Positions 8,526-58,615 of a stretch of 64,000 bases of DNA are shown here, one piece after another; position 1 is the first letter of the stretch; every line of letters starts with the position of its first letter. The DNA is from Psammoneis japonica (lineage: Eukaryota), in assembly GCA_008632985.1 (NCBI GenBank), contig QPGO01000162.1, positions 62,001-126,000 on the forward strand, given 5' to 3'. The notes under the pieces were generated by a model. The model was not told where the DNA came from and searched no databases. It saw nothing but the letters and a program-made list of their open reading frames with translations. The position numbers were made by a program, and so were the translations under genes.

Positions 8526-8795
8526 CATTTTTGCAACATAATACTGTGTTCCGCCAGCCGTATTATTTCCATTCGATCCTTTACATTCATAAAGGGACCT
8601 ACGGCTGTGGCACGAATTGTACAAGCAGCCGTCGAAAAGCAAGCGCTCGTGGTGTTTACCTTGGTGGATCCAACGTTGCGCAATTATGTGGTGGAAACAT
8701 GTGAATCCAGCAATGTGCCCGTCATTGACTTGTTGGGACCCATCTTGATGGCTCTGTCCAATTGTTTGCAAGCGACTCCTGTTGGAATACCACGG
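8526..8795 (+). pseudogene. Internal fragment of PPDK/PEP-synthase regulatory protein (DUF299 kinase-pyrophosphorylase)
   Basis: VVFTLVDPTLRNYVVETCESSNVPVIDLLGPILMALSNCLQATPVGIPR matches the middle of DUF299 proteins. There is an upstream in-frame stop, no start codon, and no N- or C-terminal motifs. Confidence 0.7.
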
Positions 8796-8880
8796 TTAGA
8801 GAACATGATTATTGGTGCAGGTGCCTGTAGAAACTTTTGTGTAGTAATGTGTCTCCTCTTTACAACAAGTCACGCTATTC

Positions 8881-8905
8881 CACACACACACACACACACA
8901 CACAC
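8881..8905. repeat. (CA)n microsatellite
   Basis: About 12 CA units. Confidence 0.95.
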
Positions 8906-13405: not shown

Positions 13406-14369
13406 GGTCAAACATTCAAGGCTGCCAGAGAAATGATTTAAGAAACTTCTCTTTGGTCACACCCTTGGAGGCCAATGAACTCTCAAACACAGAGTGTGGT
13501 TGAAGCAAAAGGCAATTGTGTTTGGTTGAGCAGTGTGCCAAAAGAGTGTGGTTGCTGTGGTGCCACTAAATTCTGGTTCAGTTGCATTTGGGCCAATCTG
13601 AACAAATGAAGAAACGGCAAATGGGTTGTTCCAACAAGTTGACTTGTTGCTGTTGTTGTTGGGATCTGAAGCAGAAATTGCCAACTTTTGAACTTGTGGC
13701 AGGTGTCCAAAATCATGATCACCAACGCAAGATTTTTTTCACTCCATTGATTGCAAGAGCGGCAAAGTTTTCTCCAAAAGCATCATTCTCAGCTTCTGTT
13801 TTCCTGACAGCATTGTGGAATGAGTTTGAAGTGCTGTTGTTGGTGAGAACATGGCAGCGATTCATTCTTGATTGAGTGATCCATTGTTGTGCACTTCATT
13901 GCACCCCCTGCTGCAAATGTCCACTGCAAGATTGGCGAACATCTTTGCCTTGCAGTCCGTTGGAAGCCTGTCGCATGCAGCAAGACAAAAGCGGTGTCTT
14001 CGGTTTCGCCATCATCAAAACTGTGGCTCTTGTTGCACTGGGTTTCAGCCGAATCATCCAACGGCAACTTGCGAGTCGTCATCAAGAGACTTTCTTAGCA
14101 CTGTGTCAATCGAAATAAAGGGTAAACAACGCAGCTTTTTGGGGCGGAGCATCATCGCAGTTGCCGCTGGCACGATGATTCATCCGGGTTTTTTTAGCAT
14201 GGTCACGTATCACGTACTGTGGGTGGCAGGGTAGGGCCCTCTACTACTAGATTTCCAAGATGAGCATGAGCGCGGCTGCTGTCGTTTCATTGCAGTTTCA
14301 AGTTTCATTTACCCTCTCCAGTACCAACAAAAGAACGTATGTATCGCAGTGATAGTTAGAGGATCAGTC

Positions 14370-19345: not shown

Positions 19346-19689
19346 TGAGATGTATTAGACGTTTGCAATAATCAAAGATCAGTCAAGTAGATGGGGTGGT
19401 ACGAAGCGTGTGGCTGTTCTCAGTTTTCGCATGTTACGCCCTAAATGAAATGAACCAGGCACTTCGAGTGGTAGGCTCTAACATAGAACATACTCTAGAG
19501 AGACGAAGTATTCACCTTGCATGCAGCACCAAGGATCTCGGCGAGTTAGCACTTTCTACTAGCTCCTACTTTACCGTTGCTAGCAGGCGCTCTTTGCTAC
19601 AAGTGTCTCTCTACTACTCGTAGTACCGGCAGCTAGGTTTATGTACAGGTTACCCACCATTATTATATAGAGCTACACTGTTAGGCCCT

Positions 19690-22620
19690 CTCTATTAGCT
19701 CTAGAGTTAGTAGAGTAGAGAGTAGAAAGGGCATCCCTTCCCGCGTCAAATCCCCTCTAGAGGAGCAGTGTGCAGGACAGATGGAGAGTGGCTGGTGAAA
19801 GTGGCAAGTTTGGGAGCCGGGCTTGTGGGTGCAGTGGGAGAGCCAACCAGCAAGGGCTTCGGTGATGGCAAAGCTGACACCTTGCAGGTCCCATTGAGAG
19901 GGTGCGGTTGGCATGACACAGGCAGCACCAAAAAGTAGGAGGAGAAGACTCCAGTGTCCATGTGTGGAGGCAGGTGGTGGTGGTGGTGGTGGGGTTGACA
20001 GTGCCTGAGGTGAAGGGCAAAGAGCAAGAGGCAAAAGCTCTGGAGGGTGCTGGAAGGAAGATTCAATTGTCCAAGGGGGTGCAGGCAGGAGGCAAGGGTG
20101 GGGGATGCTGCCACCAGAGGTGCTAAAAAAGAAAGCATCAGTGAGCAAAATGGCTGAGAGGACACCAGCACAGAAGGTGGTTGACTTTGAGCAGAAGAGC
20201 ACAGATGCCAGCATGGTTGAGGTGGTCAGCAGTGTTGCGTCTTTTGGCTCCCATGAAACTTTCTCTTTGCACTCTTGCTTGTGGTGTGCTGTGGTCAATG
20301 GGTTGCTGGCAGAGAGGGTGGGGGCAAGCTGGGAGTGGAAAAAGGAGGGGCAGTGACATGGATGGCAAAGCAGGTGTGTGAAGTGGGAGAGTCCCCAGAT
20401 GCTGTTGGAGTGAGCTGCACCACAACTTCAGCAGGGCACCTGAAGGGCGAATTGGGGAGGAGGTTGGTTGGCTCATGATCTCATGGATGTTGATGGAGAG
20501 TGCAGAGTTGTGCCCAAGGAGGGAGCACCAGCAGAGGAAGGCACAGTTGTCATGTGGGCCAGCTCATCCCTTGTAAGAAGGATGCTGGATTGAGGTGAGT
20601 CAGCAGGGAGAAATTGGGGCACAGCTTGCATTGCAAGATGGGTCAGAATGGGCCAGAGAGGAGTCTTTGTTCATTTGACAGAGCAGGCAAGAGAGCAGTG
20701 GAGGATTTGCAAACAGAGAAAGCAGGGACAGGGGGGCTTTCATTGCGCAATGTGTGGGGCCACTTTGCTGCAGAATGTTGAGTTGGCAGTGGAAAAGCAA
20801 GTGTGTGGTGCAGCTGGTGGGTGACATTTTCAAGAGCACAGATGTGCTCTTGGCAAAGAAGTGCTGCAGCAAAGATGATGTGCTGAACTCCAGGAACAGG
20901 AGTGGAGAAATGGCACAGGGCCATTGGAAGAGGCAACGGGGGTGCAGAAAGTGCCAGAAGCCTGACCAAGTGCCAAGGCAGCACACACAGAAGGGTGGAG
21001 GCAGGGATGGGACAGAGGGGATGCAAGCAGGGAATAAAGAAAGCAGGAAAGTTGAGATGTGCAGCCAACACTTCTCCCACCAAGGCCAGAACACCTCTCC
21101 CGCCAAGGCCAGAACATGGGAGAGGAGCAGTTCACAGGAAGGCAGAGCCCACGAGGCACCGCTGACAAAAAGCACGGCCATGCTGCTGGACTTGGTTTTG
21201 CTGGAAGGGTCAGGGCCAGTTGGAGGGTGCCGCTGGCCTGAACTTGGCACCAGCACCCACTGGTGGCAGAGCTGGCTTTGCCTGAGCCTGCCTTGGCCAG
21301 ATGGCAGCCAACTTCTGTGCCAACCTTGAATGACTGGTGGTGCCTTGCAACCTGCTTCCATGACACCCAGGCCAATCAAGAGCTCTCCTGCTGCCTCACC
21401 TCTGTGCTGCCCTCCCTTCTCACATTTGCTCGCACACTTGTCTGCTCTGTGATTTTGTCCAAGCCTGCCTTGGCCAGATGGCAGCCAACTTCTGTGCCAA
21501 CCTTGAATCACTGGTGGTGCCTTGCAACCTGCTTCCATGACACCCATGCCAAGAGCTCTCCTTTTGTCTCACCTCTGTGCTGCCCTCCCTTTCACATCTG
21601 CTCGCACATGTCTGGTCTGTGATTTTGATCTTGGTGCCCACAAACACACATGGGTTCAGGGTTGCCAGCAGGATTGAGAGAATGAGAGAGGCAGTTTTGC
21701 AGGCCCTCAGCACCAGGGGTGGCAGGCAACAGGTGAAAGACTGGGGTGGAGCTTGAGAGACAGAGAGGGCTGCAGCAGAGCTCAGTGCATGGAAGCCAGA
21801 TGCTGGCATCACCAAAAAGAGAGGTGCAAGAGTGAGGTGGCACTGGACAGAGGGAGACATTTGCAGAGCTTGGAGACAAGCGGCTTATGAAAATGATGCT
21901 GGCACTGGCTTGGAGAAAGAAGAGGACCAAAGAGGGCAACCTTGGGCAACAAAGTTTTGTGCTGCAAGAGCAAGAAGCACTGGGGGCCAGAGGGGTTGCA
22001 GCATCACCAGCGCAATTGTGGTTAGAGCAAGGAGGGTGGAAGATGGGCAGAAGTTAGAGCAGAGGGATGGGAGGTCACCATGCATGTTGAGAGTGTGGTG
22101 GTGACAAATGTGTTTCTTGAGCACTTGTTGAAAAAGTCAGTGAGGTCAAGGAGCAAGAGAGAGCATGAGAAGCTGGGGGAGGTCACTCAACATTTTGCAT
22201 GGGTGACATGTGCAAGAGCAAGCAGATGGGGAAGAGGTGCTCTGCGAGGGCAGATGAAGTGTGCGAGGTCAGCGTGCGACAAGGCTGCCAGCAATCCGCT
22301 GAAGGGCAGTGCACCAGCTGCATCCAACGGGGAGGGTGGAGTTTCATGAGGACAGAAAGGTCCTTGTGCAGAGCTCCAAAGCAGCCAGCGGAGACTGTGA
22401 AATGAGGGTTGGACTGCAGTGAAATGAGGGTTGGACTGCAGCAGGTGGGGGGCGCCGGTGTGTGGAAGAGCAGGCCAACTTGTGCACGTGCCCCAGCACA
22501 CAAGGCTCTGCTCTCCTCTCTCTCTCTCTCCTCTCTATGGCACTCTCTACTCTACCAGCAGCAGCAGCCACTCTACTCTCTAGTAGCCACTAGAGTAGAG
22601 CTCTGGCTCTAGAGCAGTAG
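19690..22620. mobile_element. Decayed repeat/TE block, family unassigned, purine-rich plus strand, depleted in TpA and CpG
   Basis: Almost no TA between ~19760 and 22530. Contains an internal tandem duplication and has composition similar to 42400-44000. Confidence 0.65.
21285..21628. repeat. Tandem duplication, ~175-bp unit x2
   Basis: AGCCTGCCTTGGCCAGATGGCAGCCAACTTCTGTGCC starts at 21285 and 21462. Confidence 0.9.
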
Positions 22621-23142
22621 ACGAGCAGACCACCCCCCACCGGCACTGTGTGGCAGAGAGAACACAGCAGAGAGAAACGCGTTTCTCGCCTGCAGTGTCG
22701 CAGTCACTTCGCAAAAGAGGGCATAACAATCAATTCTTCTTTCTGAATGACTTTGATTGTGTGGAAAACTCTTTTTTATTCACGCACTATATTTTTTATG
22801 TTTTTAAAATGCAATGTCAATGACTTTGAACCTAAGAATTGTGACAAAAGAAGCTCAGGCAAACTCACCTCAATGACTACTTGGTACTATGTACCATATA
22901 CGGTACTGTATTTCTCGTAGCCATATTCTATTTTGTCGAGGTCATGATATTTTAATTGGTGGGGTCATCATTTCCCTAATGTGTGTGTGTGGAGTCATCA
23001 ACCGAACCCCTCGCTGATCATGACTTTCTCGCGAAAAGGAAAGGAACACGATTACTCGTTGTGCAAGGCAAAACGCATCAAGTGCTCACAAAAACTCATT
23101 CTTGTTGCACGCGGTAGAACTCCAAGTCATTTTATAACAGAG

Positions 23143-31545: not shown

Positions 31546-31797
31546 GAGGCACGCGCTTCTCACGAGGCATCAACGCGTCGCGATCGACCGCGAGGTCTGA
31601 GGTCAAGATAAATAATAACAGAAAGATTTTTGTTCTCGCAACAACTTGGATATAGGTACGGTAAAATCATCATTCATCTTCATCACCAATAAGTTTGTCC
31701 TGGTCGCTGGAGAGGAAGACTGCTTGCTATTACCGTATTACTCTAGTCCGCTGAGTATTGTCAAGTTCATATTTCGTAGCGTTGAAGGAACCTCGAG

Positions 31798-32897
31798 ATG
31801 TCTGCCGAAAACGCAGAAGAACCAGTGCCAAGGAGGCTGCGATCATCAGAGCCAGATCTGTCGATCACGGTTGGCATTGGTGACAATAGCAAGGAATATT
31901 GCTATCATTCGCAAGTTATGGCAACTCATTCCACTTATATTGACACTATGCTTGCCACTCCCATGAAGGAAAGTCAGTCACGCCAGCTGACCTTTCCGGA
32001 TCTGACTCCCGAAATTTGGGAACTCATGATGAAAGCGCTCGATCCAGCTGAAGCTCGACAGCTTTCGATTGAAAACGCTGTGAAACCAGCGCCAGTCTAC
32101 GACAAGTACAGTTTTGAGCGCGGTCTCAAGATGTGTGATCAAGTGATTACGGAGCTGTTTGAGCAAAATTATGAAAACGCAGAGGACGGAATAAAGCCAA
32201 GTCATGACTTGTACTTACTGATCGATGCGTTTCTTGTGGCTAGTGGCGCCAATCTCAGCAGCAGCGTCGCAGGGTATAATTTCTTCCGTTCCGTTCTGAA
32301 CCACGGTCGTCGTTATGGAAGATTGATGTTCTCGGCAGACCACATCAAGAAGCTAGTGCCGCTTATTGTGGAAAAGCGTCTCCTTGCGGGATCGGTTGGC
32401 AAAGATTGGTCCACTGAAGAGATTCTGAATCCTAGTATGTACTTTGTGCTTGCATTTACGAGGTGTTATTGTTGTTACCTAAACTATTTTCTGCTTCTTT
32501 TCATTTTCTGGCAGTGTTTCCAGAATACTTTGTCTTCTACTACAGAGATTATCAACAACAAAAATGTGCTGTTGAATTAAGTCTCTCTGGCTCTGGATGC
32601 GAAGCAGACGGTGTGTTCACGAGATACGCGGGTGGATGGTTTGAATCTGGAAGAAGTATCTTGGATGGTGATGTTAGCCGTAACATCGTCATTGGCAAGA
32701 TGCAGCTAGATGGCGACTGGGTAATTTCTGGAAAGACCGAACCGGAAAATGACGAGGGCGGTGAACCCGAGTACAAGATTCTGTGGGAAAATCCATTTAG
32801 TGGCAACATGACGCTCCCACCGACGCATGGATGGGAACCTGTTGATGAACTCGTGCATGGATCACCAAGGATTGATCACATTTCCTTTTGCGCTTGA
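31798..32897 (+). CDS. BTB/POZ-domain protein; intron 32435-32514
   Basis: EPDLSITVG...YHSQVMATHSTYIDTMLATPMKESQSRQLTFPDLTPEIWE. The GT-AG intron joins the two ORFs in frame. Confidence 0.8.
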
Positions 32898-35085
32898 AGA
32901 GTACTAGAAATTTCGTTCTTTCCCCTCTTTCCTACCGTTGTGCTATTGTGATTCAATTTATCTTGAGGCAAGACAACGGTGTTAGTTCTAGCTACAGCAA
33001 AGGAAAGCGACGGCGAGTGGGCATTTCCGTAGGTCCACAGAGATATCACAACGACGCGTCGAGATCCTAGGACGGTGGTCTCTTCTCACGCGAAAGATGT
33101 GTTGGACGAGGAACTAGAGCATGATTTTTTAAGAGATCTTCTTATTGACTAGGGAATGGTCAGGCGCATTTTTTATGTTACAATCGACAGGAGGAAATCT
33201 GATGATGCCACTGCTGTCACTTCAATCCGTCTTCTTTCAAGTCATAAAAAGCCAAAGCTTTCCCTCTAGAATGGATGTGCTGGGCGCACACCCAGTGTGG
33301 TAGCGGTATGTATGTGCGTGACTACACAGACATTATCACACGACGTAGACAGCGGTTGGATCTCTCTCCGAGTTCCTCTGTTCACTTTTCCTTTTTCACC
33401 AGTGCCGTGCTCATTGCTGCTGTCCTGGTGTCTTGTTGGATTAGCATCAGACATCATTGTCTGACAGGTTGTGGCTGCGGCATCATTCTTCTGTCACAAG
33501 AACAACTGAATCTGTTGCATTTGGGCCGACGGCATCCTAACCCCGTTCTGCTTTTGCCTGCATTTGGACCATTGGCTTTGCAAATTTTCAATCTGTGATC
33601 CCAAACAAACTTTGCAGATGACATGCTGGAGCCGATGTGCAAAATTGTTTGCACCTCCAGTGTGACCAACCCCCAACAAAGATGGTGATCTGGCCAAGAT
33701 CAAGGCCGCTTCAGTCGACTTCAACCTTCACCACCTTGACACCAGCAATGTCCGTGTCATCCTCAACCAACTTTGTGCTGAGGATCTCCTTGATCCTAGA
33801 GAGATTCTGGATGGTTTCACTTGTCATGGATTGTGTGATGATGCCATGTGGACATTTTGTCATGAGATCCTCTGTGAAAGTTGATCACACCTCTCAAGCC
33901 TGGCACACGAAGTTCCAAGGACACCAGCATGGTTGGCCCTGTCTTTGACAAAGTTCCTCTGTTTGTCAGCACCTCAAATGCACCTCAGAAATGCCTCGAC
34001 TTGTCCTCTTTATGGAAGGCAATGCTCCAAGCAGTTTCTGATGAAGAGAAGATGCTGTCAACATTCACACTGGCTCGTTGCCTCATCCATTCTTTCATTC
34101 CTGGCTGGTGCGTTGTTTCATGTGCTGATTGGAGCAGCAACACATCCACCATTTCTTTTGTCAAGGCATCTTCTCCTGATCCTGCTGACCCCAAGATAAC
34201 AGCCTCTTCAAGTGCTGATCCTGGTCAATGTGCTTCTGCTCCAGCTGGTGCCTTCCTGGCCCAAAGCAACATGTGAAGACACCACGACGAAAGCACTTGC
34301 CTCTGTTCTGCCCTTGAAGTGCACTGCTCCTCCCCCTGTGCAAGTGTTCTCTTCTGTTTTGCGCACATTCAATCCAAAGAAACTGGCCTCCAATGCATTG
34401 GTGTGCTTTGAATGCAAGCACAAGGGTCATGTCATCCTGCATGATTCTTGTTTGAAACCCCACTCTAACGGGAATCTACACTGTGAAGATGGTGTTGAAC
34501 GTGTCATTCTTTGTGACAGTTCTCTGTGCATTGCAAGACAGGAATGGAGCTCAAAAGCTTTCCCACATGACCTGCTCACTTGTTGTGACATTCTGCTGCA
34601 AGGCATCTGTGTGTGGTGCAACACTTTTGCCCAACAAGCTGTGGCATGTGGCACTTCCTTCACACTGGAGGAGATCACCTTCACAATCTTCCCATGCCTT
34701 CAGCACCCCAGAAGCCTGGTCTTTTCCCAGCTGACTTCAAGTTCCCAGATGTTGTCAAGCAGTGCTGTGGTGACAAATGTGCTGCACTCATGATGATCCC
34801 ATTTGATTGCTTGCCAGTGTGGTGCAAGCACCCCTGCAATTTGATTCGCAACTGTCCTTGCCAGAATGACCTGACTCTTCTGAGCTGTCTTGCTTTCTTC
34901 AAGGACTGCCCTCACATTCATGCTGTTGTCACTGACGTTGACTCATCATTGCATGAGCCAGGTGAGCTTAATGTCTTTGTCAGTGTGATGCAAAGCATTC
35001 TAACTTCCTCCATTGCAAGACCTCCAAGGCTCAGGAAGACAAGCAGAGGGCTCACAAATTTGCAGCAAAGAAGATTGTTGAGACT

Positions 35086-40912: not shown

Positions 40913-43900
40913 TGGTGCTCATCATCGGTGTCTTTGTTGTGTGAATGAGTCAACGCAACAAGAGCTTGTCACCAATCTGTGGCTGCTCCAAGCAAGTGTC
41001 AATCATGATTTTTTACCATGAGCCCACACCCTCCATCTTAAACACCTTGCAGTCTACAAAATGACCACATGGAGAATCTCCAGCACATGACAAGTCACAC
41101 CATCATTGCAGAGAAGCCAGAGCACCACACTTGACATTGTCATCCACCAACCCACCAAACAACAGCATGTTTGACTCTTTGGCTTAAACAAATTGAACTC
41201 CACCATTCTTTGGTGGCAAAGCACCATGGGCTGCACAATGTCTTTGTTGTTGTCAGAAAGAGTCAATTCTGAATCCAACAAAATCTCCATTTCTTTTGCC
41301 ATCAGCATTTCTTTGGATGAATGCAAGAGAGACAGATCCATCCAAGGATCTTGTTCCAATCCTTGAAAGCTTCCAATTCAGTCTTGTGATTGATTGGCAC
41401 ATGTGCTTCAATCCAACTTGGACATGGACTGCTGCAAGTCTGCAGCGTTGACACATCCCCCCACAGATGGCCCTCCTTGCATTGGATGTGGCAACCAAGT
41501 CACAGACTCTTCAACCATTGCTGGCAGGTGCGTGCAGAGCCCACACATGCAAAACGCAAGCCATCAGTGTGTGCTGCAGCATTTGATGCATTCCATCCAA
41601 CACACCACACTCCAGAGGCAAGCTCACATCTGCCAAAAATGGCTTCAGCAAAATGCCGCTGTGATGCATGGCTGCTTTGGCAATCTGTCTTCTCTTTGCT
41701 TTTTTTTGATGATGCATTTCTGCATTCTGAAGATGAAATCAACCTTTTGTTGAAGTCAGAATGCTCCCTTTCCTGAATCTTTTAGAAGCCAGATTCATGA
41801 CAAGCTCAAAGCAAGCCATGACACATGCTGGATTGTCTCTGCCCCCAAAGCAAAGGCATCTGTGCTGTGCTTCTTGCACATGCTCCACTCCCCCCCTGTC
41901 TTTCTCAGAGGAACCCCACAAAAAACCAGCTTGATGTCCCACTTGAGAATCAAACACAAAAATGCCACAGACTCACAAAACTTCTGTGCTGAAGGAGCAA
42001 ATTCCCAGTGCAGAATTGCTCACGGTGCCTTGCGGTGCCGAACATTTGAACACATGCCGGGTTTGCAGGCTTTGGAGTTTTTTTTGTGTCTCATCCTCCA
42101 AGGAGCTGCTTCAGCCAGTGAGCAGCCCTTTGATTCCCATTGTGAGCAATGGTGCCTGCCTGTGTGACAGTGTGTTGCATGGCATGAAAAAAACCATGGG
42201 CTGAATGATGCTGTTGCTCTGATCTCTGATGATGGCACAGCAAAAAAAATTGAGATGAAACTCAGCCCAAATTCTGCTTGACACACAGTCTGTCTGTTGA
42301 ACTTAAAATGATGAAGAAAGGTCAATTGTCAGCACATCTAACACTGCAACATTGTCTGTCTGTCCTGCAAAAACTGCCTCCAACCCCAATGTTCTAACAG
42401 TGCCAAAGCAATCACTGTGGTGAGTTGATTCCAAGCAAAGTTGGCAGAGGACAGAAGGCAGGGTGGCAAAGCAAGGGGGTGGGTTGAAGCTTGGGTTGGG
42501 AGCAGAAAGCAAGAAAGGAAGAGCTGAAGAGGAAGTGGTGGAAAAAGAAACCAAGACCACCCAAGTGGCCATTTGTCAGTGAAAGAAGAGAGCACCCACC
42601 ATCATCAAGGGACTGGATGACATGGGAGCCATTGGCAACAGAGGCAGAGGGGCCAAGAAACTTTGATCTCATGCTCAAGTGGTGTGCCTCTGCCAACACT
42701 GGAGCACCAGAGAGGGCAGGCAGAGACCAGGAGGAGGGCAAGCAGGAGCTTTTGGTGCAGTGACATCAAAGGCAATGCAAAAACCAAAGGAGGGGGCAGA
42801 GAGGGAAGCAGGGGGGGGCAATGCTGACACCAGCAGGATGGCAAAAGGGGGAGTGGTTCAGCAGCAGATTTGTGGATTCAAGAAGGTGGACATCGTGGGG
42901 CAAATGGCGCAGCTTGGCAACCCCCCCCCCCCCCCCCCAGGAGAGTTGTGTGTGTGGTGACCAAGATGGCATCACAAGCACTGCTGGAAAGTTCAGCCTT
43001 GTGACTGTGTTGGCAAGCAAAGGCATGATCAACACAGGCATCAAGGGTGACATGGCCACAGGGGCACAGAGCACCAATGAGCAGGTGCGGAGGAAGGGTG
43101 GGGAGGCAGAGCTTGTGCTGAGCAGCGGCAGCACATGCGTTGGAGGCAAGAAGGTGGGGGATGACAGAGAAGCTTCAAGAAAGAAAGTGGAGTGGGATGC
43201 TGGCAAGAGGAGAGAGGCAGGAGCAGCTTGGACATCAGAAGGTGTGTCAGCAAGCGTGGAGGTGGCAATGCACTGCAGATGGGCATGGCAGAGGCAGTGT
43301 GCCAAGCCAGGAATTGCTTCTCGATTTAGAAAAGAGCAGCCAGAGAAGAGAAGCAGGTGAAGAATTGGAGGCAAGAGCAGCTGCCAAGCAACAAAAGAGG
43401 GTGTGCAAGTGAAGACAAGAGCAAGGGTTGTTCCAGGAAGAAAGAGAATGCCAAGAACAGCACGGGAGATCAGCGGAGGCACCAGACGGCAGCTGAACTC
43501 AGCGCGCAGCTCAAAAAGGAAGGAGCAGAGCAAAGCTGCAAGGAAGAAAGGGATGGCAGTGGTGGCAGGATCTCTGAGGCCAATTCTGCCAGGAGAAAGG
43601 CAATGGTGAGGGAGCAGGCAGGGAGGGGGTCAACATGAGTGGTGGTGTGGCAAAGGAGCAGGAGGGGAGAGAGCAGTGGCAAGAAAGTGCAGAGGAAGGG
43701 GGGTAGTCTGCTGTGTGGTGGTGGCATGGTGAAGGAAGCAGTGGATGAAAGCAACAAGGAAGTCTGTAAAGGAGGATCCAAAGGAAGGGGTTGGGTGGGT
43801 TGTCAGGATCGAATTTGCTGCAGCAGAAGTTAGCACCAAGGAGCAGCAGAGTGCTTGAAAAGTTGGGCCTTTGTCTGCTTTTCGTGCAGGTGGGCAAGGA

Positions 43901-44333
43901 GCTTGTCCACTTCAGAGGAGGATGTGGTGGAGAGAAAGGAGTTGGCAAAGGCACAAGAGCCTGAGGTCAGGCCAAGGAAGCAAACACCAGAGAGTTTTCG
44001 TTGCTTCGAATGATGTTCAAAACGCGACTTTCGAGGTCTGAGGTCCAGAAGATAAAAACCGCCGGAGGTCTAACACTTGTTTGAGAAAATCAGCTACAAG
44101 CAGAAATGTGATAGTGGGGCCACCTAGTAGAGCAATTTTGACTTGTGCCGTCGGGCACTTTCAATGTCGAGCAGCAGATATAATTCGCCACGTGAAATTG
44201 GTAAGTTTTAGGAAAATGGTGCTACGCTCAACAATGCTGTAGCTTCCCACAGACCGCCGGGAATGGCAGCTTCCTTTCTCTACTAGCTAGAGCATTGATT
44301 TGACCCGTGGATTCACAATGACTTGCTACCGAG

Positions 44334-46076
44334 TTAAAACAAGCTGTCGGCATGCTCCATCAAAAACTCTCGTAGTCTGGCCAATGCTCGTCCACGATGA
44401 CTAATGGCGTTCTTTTCATCCTTGGTCATTTCTGCGTACGTCTTCTTGTTGCCTTTTGCATCAGCTGCGCTCTCATTGGGTTCAAAGATGGGATCCCATC
44501 CAAAGTCGAGTGAACCACGTGGTCGGACAATGGAGCCTTGGGTTCGTCCCTCAAAGACGTGAATGTTGGTCCCGTCGATGCACAGAGCCATGACGGTTTG
44601 AGCGTATGCTGTTTTATCCTCAAAGCCCACCAGCATGTCATTGAGTCCGTCATGACCGCATTTTTCAAGAAACCATTTAATGTAGATACCGGGCATTCCA
44701 TTCAAGGCGTGAAAACAGAGGGACGTATCTTCAATCAGCACGGCACTCCCAACCTTTTGAAATGCCAATTGGCATTTAGCCTTGGCAACCTCTATAGGAT
44801 CGTGTCCTTGTAGTTCAGGCAAATCAATCTTTTGATTGACAAGATGAAATGGCAATTTGTTGCTACCGTGTGATAGTAGCTTTTGAACTTCTTGTAGCTT
44901 CTTGACATTACCAGTAACAAAGGTAATGGTGTGACTTGGTCTACGCGACGTGGTATCAACAGTGTTGAAAGAGGAGACTACTACTTTGAGCGTGTCGGGT
45001 AACTCTTGTGCGGTAGGATAGGAGGATTGTGCTCCATGTTTTCGTACCGACATGGACGCAACGCCACAAGCCTTGGATGCCGCGTCTGGTAGTGACAGTC
45101 CAGCAGACAAGTAGGTTGCCAAGGATCCGCAAAAGGCGTCCCCGGCACCAACGGTATCCACAACCGGAGTGTCCCGGCACGGCAAATCTGCTGGAGCATC
45201 AACATAAGTTGTTGTGGTTGTACTGGGTGGTGTTGGTGCTGCGTCGGTATCGTTAGAGTTGGTGGTAGCATCACTGTCGGTTTTGGATACAATCATGGCT
45301 CCTCGGGCTCCCAAGGTGACAACGACTGCTTTCTGAATGCCCCGATCCAAGAGTGATTTAGACATGGCTTCTTCATTAGCCCCATCATTATGATCCCCAT
45401 ACAATATCTTCAATTCCGTTTCGTTTGGAACAAGAATATCAACAAGCGGATACAGCTCGCGCTGTAATGTTTGGAGTAGCTTTTCGTCTTGTGGTGCCGG
45501 TGCTGGATTCAAAATGGTAATGGCATTTAGTTGCTTGCCAACTCTGAGTGATTCCAGTGCTGTTTCATAAAGAATTTCCAATTGAACAAGAACGACACGC
45601 GGTTTCAATAGTGGTAGTTTTGATTGCACGTCGTGAGGAGAAAGAGCGTGATTTGCCCCGGGAATCACAATAATCATATTGTCTCCACTTGATTTATCCA
45701 CAACAATCGGTGCCACTCCAGTTGTATAAAGTTCTCTTGACAGTAATGTGGTATCATTATCGTGTTGCGGTGGTGACATGATTGCGTCTTGTCCGTCGTG
45801 GTTTACTCGAGCCATGTCAAAATTGTCTAGAATCGCTCGTCCAAAGCCATCGTTTCCGACTCTGCAAATCATGCTGGTCGGAGAAATGTTCAAATTGGCA
45901 GCCGCAATCGCTTGGTTGGCTCCCTTGCCTCCACAGGATGTTTCGAATCCTTGTCCCAATACTGTTTGTCCCATTATTACCGGTAATGTCGACGTGTAGG
46001 CTACTAAATCCTGATTGGCCGAGCCCACCACGACGACTCCATGCTGCTTCTTCACGTTGTCGTCCGTGGCGGTCAT
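44334..46076 (-). CDS. Ribokinase (PfkB) fused to inosine triphosphate pyrophosphatase (Ham1/ITPA); an upstream in-frame extension is possible
   Basis: Single intronless ORF with GGKGANQA, PNETE and VDTVGAGDAF, then FVTGNVKK, EDTSL, PGIYIKWF, FGWDPIF and SHRGRA. Confidence 0.92.
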   Translation of the reverse strand: MTATDDNVKKQHGVVVVGSANQDLVAYTSTLPVIMGQTVLGQGFETSCGGKGANQAIAAANLNISPTSMICRVGNDGFGRAILDNFDMARVNHDGQDAIMSPPQHDNDTTLLSRELYTTGVAPIVVDKSSGDNMIIVIPGANHALSPHDVQSKLPLLKPRVVLVQLEILYETALESLRVGKQLNAITILNPAPAPQDEKLLQTLQRELYPLVDILVPNETELKILYGDHNDGANEEAMSKSLLDRGIQKAVVVTLGARGAMIVSKTDSDATTNSNDTDAAPTPPSTTTTTYVDAPADLPCRDTPVVDTVGAGDAFCGSLATYLSAGLSLPDAASKACGVASMSVRKHGAQSSYPTAQELPDTLKVVVSSFNTVDTTSRRPSHTITFVTGNVKKLQEVQKLLSHGSNKLPFHLVNQKIDLPELQGHDPIEVAKAKCQLAFQKVGSAVLIEDTSLCFHALNGMPGIYIKWFLEKCGHDGLNDMLVGFEDKTAYAQTVMALCIDGTNIHVFEGRTQGSIVRPRGSLDFGWDPIFEPNESAADAKGNKKTYAEMTKDEKNAISHRGRALARLREFLMEHADSLF

Positions 46077-46682
46077 GGCGTTTGGTTGAAACAGGAAAAT
46101 TCGACAACGTTTTTGGAGAAAAGGGGAGAGTAAAAAAGTGCTTGAAACAATCGTGTGAAGGGATAGAATAAGGAAGCAGAACCACTCGAGCAATAACATG
46201 AATGGGCGGGTGACGGGTGACGGGTGACGATATGATGGGTTGATGGGTGATGGGTTGGATGAGCGTTCCACACATGTTCAAAATGTTGTTTTTGATTCTT
46301 TTTATGATGATGTGTCTGTATGATAGTAGATCTTTCGTTTTGTCTGTGTGGCTGTCTCGAAAGGTGTGTGTTCTCTTTGGATACTTCGACGTCATCACGG
46401 CTTAAGGTCAGAATCTTTGTGTTGGCGCATCATCTCGGATTGACCAATCAGAATTGTTCCTTTGTCGCATTGGATTCCGATGCGATCCTGATCGGAAGAA
46501 ACAACCTGCTGCTTGTGATGTTTGATGTTGTTCCATGTTGATGCTTTATGCCGGAAGACACATCATAACACAACAAAACAAGAACAAAACAACAACAACA
46601 ACAACAACATCACAGCTGTCAAAACATCTGCAGCGTAACGTAATGCAATAATATACTAAAAAGACAAAAGACGACAACAACA

Positions 46683-49546: not shown

Positions 49547-51371
49547 CTAGTCCTTGTCCAATATGTCCATGTGCTCCTTGGAGAAGACCCCAAACTTCAC
49601 AAGTCCATAGCGAAGAGGAGCCAACATGGCAATCACAACAGGGAACAGCACCCCAAAACGACTTTCCTTGACATACAGCATGGCACAGAGACACGCAATT
49701 TGGATCAGCGTATACGACTTTGTGACATTCTTGGGAACAGAATCAGTCCACCGTTGCTTTGGTTTGATCGCTGACTCCTTAAACATGTCAACAATACGTT
49801 CCCACATTTCGATACCAGGAAGAGCGGACGTTCCTAGAAACATAAAGAGCCCCATAAGGGCCGGAAGTGGAAGATGTGAAAGCAGCTCGCGGGGCTTGGC
49901 AAAGAGAACACAACACCCAATCAATGAATGAATGGCGATACCCGTCACGCGTTGCTCGATAGTCCCATTGGTGCTTCCGTCTGGTTCGTACTTTGCAAGA
50001 GCGCGAACGTGTGAGATACTACGGACCGTGGCCGCCACTAGCCATGGGAGACCCACCACAGAAGTAGCTGCGGTCAATGCTGCAATCACAAATAGATCCA
50101 AGTTCATTCCGTCGAGAACATTTCCCTTCTCTCTTCCCTTTTCCATCTTGTAATCTGGATTGTTGACGACACGGACCGTGATGTTTTGATCCAAAAACAA
50201 CAATACGGTTGCCATTATGGCAGGCAAAATAGCTCCCCATCTCGCCCAAACAGGTAGTTCCATTAGCGGAACCAACCAAGGTCGTCCGGATGTGGTTGCA
50301 AAGGTAGATGGCATGGCCAGTGATGGAAGACCAGCGACCGCAGCTCCTTGAGACAAAAGAGAGTATCTAGCAATAAGCGCCCCCGTAACGACCCCAATGG
50401 TTGGTCCAAAGTTGGAAACATTATTACGAATCTTCTTGTTGAAAAAGACAGTCTGGCGGAGTCCTCGCAGAGTACTGGAAACCATGTATGTGACAGCAGC
50501 CACGACCAAGGTAAGCAAGCCCTTGGTAAAGGTAGACGTTTTGGAGATAAAGGCCATTCGTACATCGGACATGGCCTCAATAAGAAATATAGTGCTAATG
50601 AGGACGGAAAAGATCTCGTCTGTAAACCTCGTCAAGTATTTGACTAGATTTGACGCACTGGTTAAAGATCCCGCAAGCAAGATGCCTGCCGTCCAAAGCC
50701 CTGTCCAAGTGTAGAGTGGGAGGAAAGGAAGTGACATGGATTCTGCTACCTGTGACAAACATGCCACAAAGGCCAGAACTGGACCGGTAGACCCGATAAT
50801 GGTTAGTGGCTGTGCAGACGTCATGGCGTAAATCAAACCACATGCTGCCGTGGACGACATCATCTCAATTGTCCCCATGGCACCATCGGTAGCGGTGGCA
50901 AAGAGTGAACCAAAGCCAACTGCGGGAGCCAAGCATGCAAAGAATAGAAATAGCGTAGCTGCGAGGCACTGAGAAAGCAAGTAACGAAGAACAGAAAATA
51001 TTGTAAGAAAAATGAAGCACGTGCCCTGTGCAGCACATTCGATAACCAACAACAGCAGCACCATATCCCTGCAATACCTGATTGTTCAGACCGTCGGTAA
51101 TATCTGATTTGTAGAAAGGAATCCGTTGCTTATAATCTCTCTTGATTCCGACGCCCAAGCCTTCAAAGAGCTTATCCGCCTCGGGAACAACATCCTCAGA
51201 TGTGCTACTGGACACGAGCGGCGAAAGGCGTCGTCTGTGGCTTGGGACTACGGCTACGCGGTACGGAGAGGTAAACGCATGAATCGACCATGATTGTATC
51301 AAGAGAACTGAACAAGCCAAGAGAGGGGCAAGAGTACGTGCACGACGGTACGATGTGTTCGTCATCGCCAT
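49547..51371 (-). CDS. SLC4: SLC4-family bicarbonate transporter with bipartite leader; intron 50969-51077
   Basis: FYKSDITDGLNNQ|CLAATLFLFFACLAPAVGFG, AQPLTIIGSTGP, TRFTDEIF, LFLDQNIT, AATVRSISHV and EQRVTG. Leader ends IHA-F. Confidence 0.92.
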
Positions 51372-51522
51372 GGTTGGTTGATGTTTGACGTCGGATGATC
51401 GGCGCTTGTCTGTACCTATTCATACATAGGGGATTCCCAGCCATCTCTGAAGTGATTATGACGTCAGGCGTAGAATCACGTAGGCTCTGGTATAAAATAG
51501 ATTGATGATCACTCGACCCAAT

Positions 51523-52980
51523 TCTCCTTTTATCATGCCAGGCATTTCTACAGAATTATCATCCACTGGATTTCCGCTACGCGATTTTTCTACGTGGCTT
51601 GGTACAAGTGGGTTGAGCGGACAGCTGGCACCGCACAATCAACCGTTACGATAAGAAAACAGCCGTTACGTAACGGATGTCTCTTCCATAAGTGCAACAT
51701 TTTTTCGTTGCGAGGTCGTTTATCAAAAATCACTTGACACATTTCTCCTCACAAAAAGTTAACGAAATTTGGTTCTCATCACAACCGTTCATGAAAATTC
51801 ACACAAAGTGTCTAGATGATGTAGACGATTACACATGTAAAGCAATTCTTCTTGGTCTTCGTTGTCAGAATCACTGTCAGCCGAAGAGTTGTGAAGCTTT
51901 GATTTGAGGTCATCGAGATCACGCCTTTTCTGAACGCAAATAGAGTCGAGACATTCTTTTGTAACGTTCCGCTCTTTAAGCTCCTTCTTCTTTGCTTCAA
52001 TGCTCTTCCCCAACAAACCGGCGTTTGGACAAACCAGCCGAATCAAGATCTTCAGCTCATCTCCCTTCAACGTCTCGCACTCACCATGCTGAGGCGCACT
52101 GGAGCGAAAAGTGCATCAAACTCGTCGAGTGTCATGGCACATGTGCTTGCATGTCACCAGTGTGAATGACGGTTGGATGTGCAGCCGCCCTTTTGTGCAC
52201 ATGTGACAGGTTGTGAGCATCGACTCGCTTGCCTCTGAGGTGCAGCCCAGAGTCTCCTTTTGTCATGCCAGGCATTTCTACAGAATTGTCATCCACTGGA
52301 TTTCCGCTGCGCGATTTTTCTACGTGGCTTGGTGCAAGTGGGTTGAGCGGACAGCTGGCACCGCACAATCAACCGTTGCGACAAGAAAACAGCCGTCACG
52401 TGACGGATGTGTCTTCCACAAGTGCAACATTTTTTCGTTGCGAGGTCGTTTGTCAAAAATCACTTGACACATTTCTCCTCACAAAAAGTCAACGAAATTT
52501 GGTTCTCATCACAACCGTTCATGAAAGTTCGCACAAAGTGTCTGGATGATGTGGACGATTGTACATGCAAAGCAACTCTTCTTGGTCTTCGTTGTCAGAA
52601 TCACTGTCAGCCGAAGAGTTGTGAAGCTTTGATTTGAGGTCATCAAGATCGCGCCTTTTCTGAACGCAAATAGAGTCGAGACACTCTTTTGCAACGTTCC
52701 CCTCTTTAAGCTCCTTCTTCTTTGCTTCAATGCTCTTCCCCAACAAACCGGCGTTTGGACAAACCAGCCAAATCAAGATCTTCAGCTCATCTCCCTTCAA
52801 CATCTCGCACTCACCGCACTGAGGCGCACTGGAGCGAAGTGCATCAAACTCATCGAGTGTCATGGTGTGTGCACTTGCATGTCACCAGTGTGAACAACGG
52901 TTGGATGTGCAGTCGCCCTTTTGTGTGCACATGACAGGTTGTGAGCATCGATTCGCTTGCCTCTGAGGTGCAGCCCAGAG
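51523..52980. repeat. Tandem duplication of a ~730-bp 3' segment of the pogo-like element (51523-52252, 52253-52980); a partial third copy lies at ~53410-53485
   Basis: Direct alignment of the copies; duplicated peptides in the ORF track (KGDELKILI.LVCPNAGLLGKS). Confidence 0.95.
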
Positions 52981-53429
52981 CCCAGAGAACAGTGGTCGCA
53001 GGTTCGACACCTCGAATTCATGCAGAAAAGTTCAGGGCAACGCAGGGGGCAAATGCCTGTAAAACAGCCAAACTAACATGCAGAAAATGTCTGCGCAAGA
53101 GGAGCGCACATGCAAAACATGCCTTCCAACCAGGGTGCGAGAAGCCAACAGGGTATGAGTCACCTGAAGAGTGGCCTTCACAACAACACAAACAACAAAA
53201 CACACACAACTAAAGTGCAAACACAATGTGGAAGCATTCCGACAGGCATGGGAGACACCTCTCCGGCGATTGCACTGACAGAGTTGCAACACACAATGAA
53301 AACATACAAACATGCACACCAGAAACTGACAACCAGAAAACATCTGCCTCTGAATGTACAAACCAATGCACTCCGTGAACATCCGAACATTAGTTTGAAG
53401 GGGGGTGTTGTGGCATGTGCACTTGCATG

Positions 53430-56400
53430 TCACCAGTGTGAACAACGGTTGGATGTGCAGTCGCCCTTTTGTGTGCACATGACATCGAGCGCTTTCGATT
53501 GCTTGGCGATGTCAGCCTTCAGTTTCGTTTGCTCTGCCTCGCCCACCTCGATCATCCTTGTCTTGGTGCGGCGCATGGCAACAATTGCATTCTCACCTCG
53601 TGCTGTCGTGACAATGGCTCCACGTCTCTTCTTTTTGGGCGGTTGCTCGGAAGCACCCGCTGCGCCGGCAACCGCATCCTTTCGCTTGAAACCGGCAAGC
53701 ACGCTCGACATCGTTGCATGCATTGCGACGCTGATGGCGTTCACACCACTGCTGTTCACCTCTGCTTCGAAGCCATCAATCATGGCGACATGTGGTTTCT
53801 CAATCATCTCTTTCAACTGCAAAAAATCCTGAAAAGAAAAGCTCTCACCAACTGTTTTCCCTTGTTGTTGTTGATGCCAGACTTCAAACATTTTGTCACG
53901 CTGTTCCGAAGCTTTCCGTTTTGCAGCCTCGATTGATGCTGTCTGCTCTCTCTGTCTCTGCTGCCTTTTGTGGAGATGCTCTCTTCTGGTTGCAGCAGGA
54001 TCTTTCAGAAATTTTTTGGGGTCGACGCGGCCGCTCTGGGTCACAATGCGCTCAGTCCCATCTTCCAGCACCAGCTTCCAATTCGGACTGGTTTGGAGCA
54101 TGACAACTCCATCAAAGGTTGCACCAGTGGGATCAAAAAATTGCACCTCAACAGCATCAATGAAAGGTCGCACCGAACGCAGCACCGTTGCAGTCCAATC
54201 TCTCGCGTGCTCCTCTTTCGTCTTTTCCGCCGCACAAGGCAGTGACGCCGCATCAGGCAAGCAATGTTGTGCAAGTTGCATGGCCAGCTCTTCTTGTTCA
54301 CTTGTTGGCTCTGGTTTCTCACTCTTGCACTCTGTGCCCTCTCTCCATTTTGCCAACATTGATTTTGCCACTGGCATCGCAACATCCAAGTCGTGAAGCA
54401 GCAGGTCGTCATCGTCGTCGTCGTCGCAGCCCTTGCAGAGAATGTTTCTTGATCTCTCAACAATGGCAACTCGTTTGTCAGGTGGGAGAGGCTCAATTTC
54501 CCACTCTTGTTTTTGTTGCTCTTGTGCTTGTTCCTCCTTTTCTCTTTGTGATTCCAGGGCGAGGTCGTGTGCGGTCCCCATTGTCTCTGGCACTTCCGTC
54601 CACGCCACGCAATCGGGGTTGATTGGCTCAAGTCCGGTTTCCTTCCAGGCACTTGTGCAGACATTGCTTCCTTTGGACAACAGCTCAGCCTTCTCGGCTT
54701 CAAGGTGAGCCTTCCAAGCAGCGAGAAAAACCCAGTTTGTCAACCGCACTCCTTTTGCAAGACCGCTCTCGTGCCTGGCCCTCTTTGCCTCTTCCTCGAT
54801 CTTGACATGCAGGCGTTTGTTGACACCTCGATCATTTGGTTGTGTCCAGATGGATGTGTGAGATGGCAGAAAAAAACAACAGATGTTGTGATCCCAGAAA
54901 TGCTTGAGAGCGGCGTGGCACCAATGCGAGGCATGTCCATCGAGCAGCAGCATCGTGGCGTTCCTCATTCGTTCCTCGTCTGTCGCGCAACTTGTTTTTC
55001 CTTGACCCTTGGGAAGGTTCTTGCAGTGATGAATGGCGAAGTCGAGCATTGCATCTTTTTCCATGCTTCCATTTGTGGTTGTCCGGACATCAAAGCCGCG
55101 CGGGTTGTCGCTGAACTTGGCGTTGGGGTTGGGATTTGCTGGGGTGAGGCCGTCAAGATGCATTTCACCAACAAGCAGTCTCGTCTTCTGGAGCATCAAT
55201 GCGGTTGGAATCATTGGTCTTCTTCTTGGATTTGGAGGCATGCACAAGGAACGGCAGCGGGGCACCTTCAATTTCTTGGCACGGAATTGCGTTGACGCCT
55301 GCGGAGGCGGACGGGGCACAAGGCAAGTGCGTTCAACAATTGTCCAGAGCAAGGCAGTGACAACAAATAAAGTGGCACCCCTTTGCTTGCCATCTGCTCT
55401 AGAAGTGACACACACAGCAAGATGATGCTCATCTTGCCGTCGCCCTCGGGAGTCCTCTGAAAAATGCACAACTTCTTCATGACCTCCTTGAAGACCAGCA
55501 CTTTCTTGCGGCGTTTTGCAGTGTCCATTGCAACTTCATCCATGTTGCATTTTCTAAAAGCCTCAAGCTTCTCAATGCAATCAACATCAATTTTACCTGT
55601 GGCATGGAGATGCTTCACAAAAGACTGCAACTTTGCAAAACATGCATCCCGAACCTCTTTCGTCCCCTGCTCAGCATGAATTGGGTCCAAACTTGAAGCT
55701 GAAGCTGGTTTTGCTGGCTTTGGATGGCGTTGGAGCATGGGGTGTAGACAGGTTCCAGTCCCAGGTGGGACTTTTTGTGACATTTGCCCCGCAGAATTCT
55801 GCGCGCGAGCTCTGCAGTTCGCACTCTGGTCAATGGATGTGTTTGTCTTCGACATGAAAAAAACGGCCAAGTTTGCAGCACATCTGTCCCTGTTGGTGCT
55901 CAAAGTTTTGGACAATGCGCCTGCCCTGCGCCATTCTTAAGACACTCGAGAATGGCACAGAAGAAAAAAACATTAAAAGTTGTTCAATGGACAGCCTGAC
56001 AAATGCACTGTAAAATCACACAAAATTTCGCCAAAATCACGTAGAAATGCACGTGCATGACATACGACGCGATTCAAAAAACTGTCGATGTCACAGTTCA
56101 GTGGTGCGAGGTCCCACCTAGACCTGGAACGCGTCTGCACAAAACAATCAGACACAGATGGTTTTTCACGCTCATCAATGTGCTCATCAGCCAAGTCATT
56201 CACAATGTCAAGAATGGTGTCCTTTGACACTCCACATCCCATCTGACCCAGCCAGCAGCAAACTTCAACAACATGCTGCTCTTCGTCGTCAGCAAGAGCT
56301 CCACTCCCCTTGTGCAAGGCAGTGATTGCCTCCTTTGCCTTCTTGTCTTTTGCTCCAAAATGGTTGCAAGTGGCTTCTTGTGCTTTCTCCACTGAAGCAC

Positions 56401-56700
56401 TTTCTTGATGAAGACGACGAAGTCCACTTTGTCCCCATGCCCGATTCAGGGTGTTGCAACGGGTGCTGTGCTCAGGGTGGACATTCTTGCAGTGATGGCT
56501 CAAAGAAACTCCATTGCCATTTGCATGGAAGTCCACAAGAATGTGAAACTTCAAAGACTTCTCCACACGTGGGCATTTCGTTCCCTTTGCTCTGCCTTTC
56601 GCCTTGGCTTTTTCCAAAGGTTTGAATGCATCCGCCGGTGAAGGAGCAGTGACAGCATCAACACACTGAGGATGAATGCACATGGCGGCAAACACAGATT
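53430..56700 (-). mobile_element. Decayed pogo/Fot1-like DD35D transposase (CENP-B HTH + DDE_1), frameshifted and interrupted by a MITE
   Basis: LADDEEQHVVEVCCWLGQMGCGVSKDTI (HTH), NMDE, and LLLDGHASH...LPSHTSIWTQPND with 35 residues between the last two Asp. Confidence 0.85.
55746..56136. mobile_element. ~390-bp MITE, copy A, inserted in the pogo-like transposase
   Basis: Imperfect TIRs AGACAGGTTCCAGTCCCAGGTGGGAC / GTCCCACCTAGACCTGGAACGCGTCT; homologous to copies B and C. Confidence 0.85.
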
Positions 56701-58615
56701 GCTGTTGTAAGACAAGTCTGCTTTATGTTGTGGGTGTTTTTGAAATTTATGTCGAGCTGATTGTTGCACACGGATCATCACAAAATTCAAACCTCATGTA
56801 AAATCACTGCTGGGATGTGCGTCGACAATGACAGAAAAAAATGGCGCGACAATGCATTGCGCACATGCTGCACATGGTCTCTTGTCATGTCGACTCTTGT
56901 GAATCGAATGGTGCATCAACAGCTCAACAGTGTTGACGATGGGTTTGGAACTAGAGCGCCATGGTCGACGAGACGGGATGACGGTTTTTGCATTTTTTTT
57001 TTCTCGGCGAGAAGTTGAGTGGAGGAGAGATGAGAGATGAGATGGAGGGAAAGATTTTTCTCTCATCTGGAACTCGATGGCAAACTTTACTGTGGCGATT
57101 TGTGCGCAAATGATTGCACACACTAACATGTCACAACATAAGTTGGTGGTGTTCTGATCAGAATTTCAGCACCAGAAAAAATGCGTGCAATTCCACATGA
57201 TCACTTCACACCAAATTGTCACTTCACAGATGGGAATCCCCTGTGGTTGAAGATTGGGTGAGCTTGGATTTTGACAAAATTGGCTTTTCATTGTTTTCTT
57301 TGGAGCCTGCAATTGTTTTTTTTGCGAGGTCCAATGTTTTTTTCAAAAAAGCATTAGATGGTTTTTCTGGAACTCAGACCTCGTGGACCCCTTTTGTTTT
57401 TTCGCGAGGTCCACAAGCAAAAAACCGGTCTGTCCTCTTCTTTTTGGTGTCTTTGTAAAAGTCGATTTTGTTTCCAAAATCGATGGGGTTTTCACTGTGC
57501 AATGCTTCTTGCGTCTTCTGCCATTGTCAATTGACATGTTCTCATGCCTGTGTTCACCAGAGTCACGGTTCTGAACGCCACAACTGGTGTCGCAAGAGGG
57601 GGCTTTTTTTGCTCCAAGAGGACAGACCGGTTGTCAGTGGAATTCTACGTGGAAATGTGCCGAGAAATTTGTGAAGTTTTTTTGCTTGCTTGTGGCCATC
57701 GTCTCTTGCAACGGCAGCATGGCAAGTCCACAACACACACTCGCATCGAATTACATGGGCCCACAAGCTGTGATTGATTGCTGTTTTGCTTTGTTGCTCG
57801 CACTGTGTGTGCAGGTGTTTGTCACTGGTCATCATTCATCATGACACATGGTGCAACTTCTTGTTGTCGTCGAAAACTCAACAAAACGCAGCGCGATGCA
57901 GTGTCAAAAAATGCAAAATGATGAAGATAATTGAGGGTGGGAAATCCCTTGTTTTCGGGGGCATTTTGGAAATTTCACTGGAAAAACGGATAAAATGAGA
58001 CAGCATTTTTTGCGAATGCGTGCGATTCATGGAAAAACGCTCAAACGGCTTGAGTGCAAATTCTGAGCTCACCGTGCAAATTCTGAGCTCACCGTGCAAA
58101 CAACACAACAACAGCTGAAATGCCGTTCGTTGAATGCAATGGAGGTGGGGAGGCCTCCAACTTTCTTCACAAGTTTGTCACCCATGTCAAATGCGATGCA
58201 CCCTGAAAAAAGTTGGAGGCTGCCCCGCCAAGTTTTCGAACGGCATTTCGGCCATTGTCGTGTTGTTTGCACGGTGAGCGCCGAACGCGTTGGGATGTTT
58301 TCTCCACAATTGCATCACAAATGATTAAAAGATTGGTTGTTTTTGATGCTTTTTACAAATGTGTGTCGAAAACACAAGGGGGTTCCCAGCCTTGATGAAC
58401 GAAAATCTCTGTAAAATTTCAGACGGTGCATTTTTTTTAGAAAATGGCAATGTGCCATTTTTGGCCCCCGATTGCGCTGTGATGCAACATTCTTTTGTCC
58501 CGCTGTTTTCACCATGATCTCTGTTGACATTCTAGCTGAAGTTTGCAGGTTGGGTTTGGATGGCAAACAATGGGAAGTTGCTCATGGAGTTGCTTTACAA
58601 AGTTTGCTCTTCCAA

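Follow-up and report, generated by a model that had tools for sequence, protein, structure and literature searches.

Loss of TA dinucleotides from transposons in a diatom depends on chromosomal position and fades in beside genes

Hypermutation at TpA has been described in Bigelowiella natans, where it affects integrated DNA of NCLDVs and virophages (10.64898/2026.01.13.699255). According to the main text of that preprint, TpA is converted to TpG or CpA on both strands, in foreign or mobile DNA only and at two to three orders of magnitude over background; TA-poor coding sequences are enriched in DDE and reverse-transcriptase domains, the hypermutation switches on in only some lines, and an ADAT2-like deaminase is proposed but unproven (10.64898/2026.01.13.699255). 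The main text makes no mention of boundaries, edges, gradients, flanks or diatoms (10.64898/2026.01.13.699255). The literature searched, outside which lay most subscription journals and preprint supplements, contained neither an account of diatom TpA hypermutation nor one of the edges of such mutation. The DIM-5/HP1/DIM-2 pathway for Neurospora's repeat-induced point mutation (RIP) is described, in the accessible part of the source, as heterochromatin-related and homology-triggered, and it reaches adjoining single-copy DNA (10.1101/115501). In diatoms, DNMT5-dependent CG methylation is placed on isolated transposon islands in a genome that is otherwise unmarked, and on these islands it occurs together with H3K9 and H3K27 marks (PMC9998398, accessible part).

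Here we describe a window, the whole stretch of 64,000 nucleotides analysed from contig QPGO01000162.1 of Psammoneis japonica, in which blocks at 9.0–14.1, 19.8–22.5 and 33.35–44.05 kb are devoid of TA and CG, and a further block, starting at 52.0 kb, is devoid of TA and keeps most of its CG. TA loss falls mostly in transposons and spares genes; it also occurs in a host-type duplicate at 13.6–14.1 kb, and transposon ends are spared. The main site lies at the start of an SLC4 gene and comprises the following features (strand given where assigned).

49547–51371, minus strand: gene of the SLC4 (HCO3- transporter) family, from ORFs and Pfam PF00955 (E 1e-120)
51427–51428: left TA target-site duplication, still TA, from junction sequences
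51429–57241, minus strand: pogo-like DDE_1 DNA transposon, from genome copies, PF03184 (E 1.8e-6) and young-copy ORFs
51429–51880: sheltered zone, element bases 1–450, 2/25 ancestral TA lost in the window copy
51459–51466: 88 bp upstream of the SLC4 start, a TGACGTCA palindrome within the transposon end
51523–52252, plus strand: tandem duplicate w1, gene-side, 2/22 TA sites lost since duplication
51881–52129: ramp, element bases 451–700, 8/11 ancestral TA lost in the window copy
52253–52980, plus strand: tandem duplicate w2, inner, 17/22 TA sites lost since duplication
52857–53484: small element lying in the transposase gene as an insertion, its two ends bearing 80-bp direct repeats
55746–56137: MITE-like insert of 392 bp with many genome copies

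The SLC4 gene starts at 51371, contains a single 109-bp intron (50969–51077) and has diatom proteins as its named homologues (Seminavis, Cyclotella and Thalassiosira; 69%). A public contig of one read run (X2) skips 50969–51077, leaving out the intron with its CT..AC ends, which hints that SLC4 is transcribed, the run carrying no RNA label on record. The left end of the transposon lies 57 bp upstream of the SLC4 start, with the transposase oriented towards SLC4. The element has a DDE_1 transposase (PF03184 above the cut-off), terminal inverted repeats that start GGGGATTCCCA and a TA target-site duplication, and we take it to be pogo-like from its Pfam family, PF03184. Uninterrupted copies are approximately 4.08 kb long, and the window copy carries inserts; the first 124 bp of the small direct-repeat element are also present in w1 (52129–52252). 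Target-site flanks of the element copies read TA, CA or TG, and at the window copy the right duplication (57242–57243) is now TG and the left one is still TA. TA loss deletes stop codons, so that dead elements show long false ORFs; an ORF in the window at 53430–55535 extends past the exon limits of young copies.

The original prediction held that, within one repeat copy, TA survives in the approximately 450 bp nearest the SLC4 start and disappears further in, and this was borne out: up to 51838, the DNA beyond the SLC4 start is as dense in TA steps as normal, further ones lie at 51941, 51962 and 51977, and the next is met only at 52279. The aligned part of w1 contains 20 TA steps, 16 of which are CA or TG in w2, and because the young unmutated copies L038, L039 and L040 carry TA at these sites, TA is the ancestral state. 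Losses since the duplication number 2/22 in w1 and 17/22 in w2 (Fisher p 9e-6), and so the proposal that a duplicated sequence is protected by its position holds for two copies of like sequence and equal age, 730 bp apart: with a duplicate spared at one place and stripped at the other, sequence and pairing are insufficient as determinants. Beyond element base 450, the losses are mostly common to w1 and w2 and have identical outcomes, which dates the edge before the duplication. Part of the visible ramp reflects ancestral composition, as the 450-bp non-coding end had 26 TA sites and bases 801–1200 had 11.

In the TA-rich tract, w1 and w2 have in common a 7-bp deletion and four substitutions that are absent in seven other copies, and non-TA divergence in the spared sequence is normal, both in w1 (7/348 vs 22/1686 inside) and in another copy, L034 (12/347 in the sheltered zone vs 17/1000 inside). 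These common private markers and the normal divergence exclude both a recent conversion from a young copy, which had been raised as an alternative source of the tract, and site-by-site selection. Among the public contigs of two of three read runs, compared with 50900–52320, no piece spans the stretch; cover is absent at 51270–51440 (run X1) and at 52244–52320 (both runs), so that the SLC4–element and w1–w2 junctions are unspanned, which proves nothing either way. The inference of position dependence does not rest on w2 alone.

The family set comprises 14 other loci beside the window copy. Ancestral states were read from the three short, nearly identical unmutated derivatives named above, giving 168 scored TA sites, of which 19 were deduced from columns with CA and TG and without CG. 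In four copies that lie beside TA-normal DNA (L042, L031, L034 and that of the window), TA losses came to 5/103 sites in bases 1–450, 14/32 in bases 451–600, 18/20 in bases 601–800 and 43/44 in bases 801–1200, and different outcomes at identical sites among them show that the losses were independent. The pattern of the main site recurs on four other contigs. By comparison, L033, which has a similar non-TA divergence (1.2%) and is embedded in TA-poor DNA, lost 18/26 TA sites in bases 1–450, and w2 lost 17/19 in the same bases. The youngest mutated copy, L032 (0.2%), lost none of 34 TA sites in bases 1–600 beside a DapB gene and 42/80 in its interior (bases 801–3100); at its other, broken end, which consists of transposase coding sequence 282 bp from the start of a TPI gene, 1/12 sites were lost, compared with 42/46 there in four other copies.

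Within approximately 60–500 bp of each spared left end lies an ORF directed away from it. Three of these five neighbouring ORFs have a Pfam match, which is lacking in the other two, and the three Pfam-supported genes are housekeeping or transporter genes. Seven loci of the family (L031, L032, L034, L038, L041, L042 and L044) lie upstream of genes directed away from them, in two cases between a divergent pair, a placement suggestive of insertion into promoters or of retention there. The spared natural ends are all left ends, and among the mutated copies found no right end lies beside a gene. Two counter-cases, L041 and L044, have TA-normal flanks, yet 21/24 and 18/20 TA sites were lost in bases 1–450; they are older (4% and 16%) and more distant from a start codon, the nearest predicted one being approximately 730 and 420 bp away, and they fit a shelter only if it narrows with time. 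Four further copies (L035, L036, L037 and L043) say little because they are older and have TA-poor flanks. The MITE family gives no test of shelter, since all 30 of the 46 matches that were examined have TA-poor immediate flanks; 28 of them are mutated and two are not (0/25 and 1/26). Unmutated insertions (the right flank of L039; L117 and L118, which differ at 17/387 bases) adjoin or sit within TA-poor DNA, and either they are very young or the mutator is not always and everywhere active.

Sequence context affects the record of the edge. TA followed by A, or within CTAG, is a slow context (27–50% kept vs 0–8%), and in the interior of the DDE element (four copies, read on the A) TAC and TAT mutate fastest, TAG less and TAA least. 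Because the final three TA steps of w1 fall in slow contexts, w1 alone cannot demonstrate a ramp. Five copies were fitted on a grid by a model that gave each copy its own exposure and midpoint and allowed for two context classes and a leak; a logistic scale of 75–100 bp gave the best fit (lnL -131.4, vs -134.3 for a step and -138.4 for 200 bp), and in 636 data sets simulated from the fitted leaky step the observed gain was never attained. Compared with a single step, the edge is graded, albeit narrowly, with approximately 330–440 bp between 10% and 90% of the rate, and in L032 and L042 it is fitted near base 790, well within the coding region. The shelter is leaky and seems to diminish in width with age.

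CG decay was compared with TA loss at 53 edges in 464 kb from four contigs, of which 235 kb (about half) are TA-poor; 45 edges had long enough sides, and 33 of these showed an evident step in CG. At 24/33 edges the step in CG was situated further inside than that in TA, with a median offset of +82 bp, compared with a largest median of +33 bp in simulations of coincident steps (n=300). Offsets were negative at 9/33 edges, including the one at 9030 in the window (-107 bp), where the others were +151 (14089), +4 (19762), +168 (22522), +125 (33348) and +61 bp (44049). Over the first four 100-bp bins, the CG share of pyrimidine–purine steps fell from 0.20 to 0.13, 0.085 and 0.048, and within the single copy L034 the CG edge is likewise nested inside the TA edge. 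L031 changed at 79/95 TA sites, at 7 of approximately 91 CG sites and at 3/939 other A/T bases, so that CG decay is much slower than TA loss. CG methylation like that of diatom transposon islands is a likely source of this decay. The inward position of the CG edge would follow from a common rate gradient or from a narrower methylated domain, and the data fit both.

Five further edges in the window bear on the prediction that similar ramps recur.

8553–9086: left edge of the 9.0–14.1 kb block with partial TA loss, made up of a Kinase-PPPase gene fragment and the other part of the multi-copy segment
13563–14135: piece of the multi-copy host-type segment, right edge of the same block, from alignment to the unmutated locus L046
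22200–22535: right edge of the 19.8–22.5 kb block, CG present and TA absent, from composition
33270–33750: left edge of the 33.35–44.05 kb block, approximately 450 bp from the stop of a BTB gene, from composition
43990–44055: right edge of the same block, near an element end, step-like

Of these, only the ramp proposed at 13850–14240 is confirmed by homology. Relative to L046 (74%), 17 TA were lost and none kept at 13574–14104, the next being kept at 14116 and 14123; CG was kept at 0/11 sites up to 13816 and at 9/19 from 13858 to 14130, in agreement with the prediction that CG has returned at 13860–14090 with TA still absent. The alignment shows that the domain extends approximately 550 bp past the insertion and ends approximately 280 bp before Rad17. 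At the proposed ramp of 8940–9060, 7/15 scorable TA of 8828–9018 were lost relative to L046, modestly more than in a control paralogue pair (about a quarter), and the CG edge, 107 bp further out than that of TA, goes against the general pattern; the ramp there is weakly supported. For 22200–22500, where CG was likewise said to have returned ahead of TA, composition agrees (10 CG and no TA in 300 bp) in DNA for which no homologue was found, as it does for a ramp at 33200–33550 (CG edge +125 bp), where homologues of the element part are all mutated. The ramp proposed at 43990–44130 did not hold as far as it was tested: TA loss stops, step-like, within approximately 60 bp of the element end at 43993. 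Homologue searches with 21900–22900, 32900–34300 and 43300–44330 found no unmutated copy of the element parts.

Several features of these surroundings were recorded. The truncated Kinase-PPPase (PPDK regulatory protein family) duplicate at 8553–8794 lies directly behind a magnesium chelatase D-like gene and is 83% identical to an intact copy in L062. The first TA-poor block contains a long inverted repeat (11857–13405) with arms 93–100% complementary. TA-rich short repeats of the CTCTAGAG type at 19500–19760 and 22535–22620 mark the ends of the 19.8–22.5 kb block and are possibly spared element ends. The BTB gene with its downstream DNA (31694–33272) is a 77% duplicate of L068, with TA kept in both. 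A single ORF at 44334–46277 combines PfkB kinase and Ham1 (ITPase) domains; Ham1 enzymes clear deaminated purine nucleotides.

With ORFs of at least 200 aa as gene proxies and a distance limit of 1.5 kb, 39/45 edges of the sample had an ORF in reach, at a median distance of 381 bp to the start (22 promoter-side edges) or 416 bp to the stop (17 terminator-side edges); the similarity of the two medians leaves a promoter-only shelter unsupported. Distances of 200–600 bp were found for 26/39 edges compared with 39% of random points in 50 native gaps, a weak test because selection against gene-near insertions would be similar in shape and because genes are represented only by ORF proxies.

Taken together, TA is converted to CA or TG after insertion, independently in each copy, on both strands and at a few hundred times the rate of other A/T sites; over several hundred bases alongside a gene the rate is near zero, and it then rises across approximately 300–450 bp; a slower CG decay affects the same domains, with its edge further in; and the edges do not track element ends, lying within transposons and in duplicated host-type DNA. 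A process that leaves a gene's nearest few hundred bases alone and then sets in gradually over a few hundred more goes by position and not by sequence or copy number, and dependence of TA loss on chromosomal position is shown with high confidence. The original prediction that targeting follows a chromatin domain rather than homology alone stands as regards position, and its chromatin part is the interpretation that we favour, at a probability of roughly 0.6: a TpA-specific A:T-to-G:C mutator would work on silent chromatin that is nucleated by transposons and held back by active genes. The domain would be diatom-type heterochromatin, in which transposon islands carry CG methylation along with methylated H3K9 and H3K27; the mutator, which may be a DNA adenine deaminase, would be recruited to it, and the border would be set by the open chromatin that flanks genes. 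A single rate gradient would shift the CG edge inwards and would also make the TA edge drift towards genes with age, and the TA edge lies approximately 0.6–0.9 kb from the start codon in young copies and approximately 0.4 kb in the genome sample.

A fuller version of the chromatin reading, which we hold with about even odds, is that diatoms possess a heterochromatin-guided adenine (TpA) mutator kept two to five nucleosomes off active genes on both promoter and terminator sides, that TA and CG form a permanent record, at approximately 100-bp resolution, of the extent and duration of silent chromatin, and that transposon ends landed in promoters escape and can serve as regulatory DNA. The bZIP-type palindrome TGACGTCA upstream of SLC4 might be such putative regulatory DNA; the motif occurs at 0.67 per kb in the window, and TGACGT/C on both strands is given as the CO2/cAMP-responsive element of Phaeodactylum in the accessible part of PMC11142338. 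Searches of the 91-Mb assembly returned nine PF00383 (deaminase) matches, in a class of genes that is universal, and 27 PF00145 (methylase) matches, with no candidate named in either case. Several PF00145 matches (C297, C301 and C10) are multi-copy or contain stops and are possibly borne by mobile elements.

Among the alternatives, the best placed, though unlikely, is that transcripts or small RNAs of the element guide the mutator to transposase coding sequence first and to the 3′ end by later spreading, with factors bound to the left end, at its bZIP-type palindromes, adding shelter. It is kept viable by the transposase stop, which at element bases 413–415 lies beside the edge in w1, L031 and L034, and it gains from the restriction of spared natural ends to left ends and from the occurrence of TGACGTCA and three further ACGT cores in the spared part. 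However, the identical end is stripped in w2 and L033, the edges near base 790 in L032 and L042 lie far into the coding region, the broken end of L032 is coding sequence that is nevertheless spared beside TPI, and non-transposon duplicate DNA is mutated at 13.6–14.1 kb.

Only slightly less probable is an edge formed by repair, in which lesions arise across the whole element and are better removed (by inosine or mismatch repair) in gene-adjacent open chromatin. Repair is more efficient in active chromatin, and an edge that is a repair border would show the same position dependence, leakiness and ramp. Ordinary substitutions, though, are no rarer in the sheltered zones of w1 and L034 than inside (counts above), so that general repair is no better there, and such a model requires a separate marking of transposons.

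Selection or survivorship, by which copies whose mutation or silencing reached a promoter were purged, is improbable. Spared ends do lie upstream of ORFs pointing away, three of them Pfam-confirmed, and the SLC4 promoter may be in the element end; but selection on single sites cannot keep 98/103 TA sites with other bases changing at the normal rate, and selection on the reach of silencing, which could spare TA, amounts to the chromatin-domain model. Still less credible is a RIP-like pairing of homologous copies that chooses targets: these are mostly repeats, and, because the Neurospora pathway also mutates adjoining single-copy DNA, homology could still be the trigger (10.1101/115501, accessible part), but linked copies that received 3163 vs 3153 mutations in Neurospora (10.1101/115501) correspond here to 2/22 vs 17/22, no part of the element is more repeated than the spared end, and pairing as the sole determinant is already contradicted. 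Recent gene conversion or chimeric assembly as the origin of the TA-rich tract has hardly any probability left, for although identical unmutated donors exist (L038, L039 and L040) and the two junctions have no public contig cover, five markers are common to w1 and w2 in the tract and absent in seven other copies, w1 is unlike the young copies at 22/692 bases, one public contig agrees with w2 at two sites, and four further contigs show the pattern again.

The sole published case of TpA hypermutation that we found, in Bigelowiella, leaves target choice open in the main text of the preprint. The present locus provides the width of the shelter, the order of the edges (TA outside CG) and exact loci at which the guide can be traced, and it contributes replication across copies, a duplication that times the losses, shelter at an internal break and a formal test of the ramp. 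It is relevant to the dating of diatom transposons, to transgene design near repeats and to the survival of transposon ends as promoter DNA.

The mutation spectrum matches that of Bigelowiella natans, and two tests that define fungal RIP failed: at TpA, T to C or A to G predominates in place of C to T, and linked duplicates were not mutated alike (2/22 vs 17/22). As in the main text of the Bigelowiella preprint, the change is A:T to G:C at TpA on both strands (in L031, 79/95 vs 3/939, with 44 CA and 42 TG outcomes), and the local rate is approximately 280-fold in L031, a ratio obtained from divergence, whereas the Bigelowiella rate was measured. The host here differs in being a diatom, with 235/464 kb affected, near-saturated loss and domains in common with CG decay. 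Diatom DNMT5 methylation, as described in the accessible part of PMC9998398, accounts for CG to TG or CA only and not for TA loss. The Neurospora DIM-2 pathway (10.1101/115501, accessible part) resembles the process proposed here as a heterochromatin-tied mutator that reaches past repeats, and would be a functional analogue; Neurospora RIP itself is C-to-T, homology-triggered and premeiotic and mutates linked copies alike, whereas the change in this diatom is A:T to G:C at TpA (10.1101/115501).
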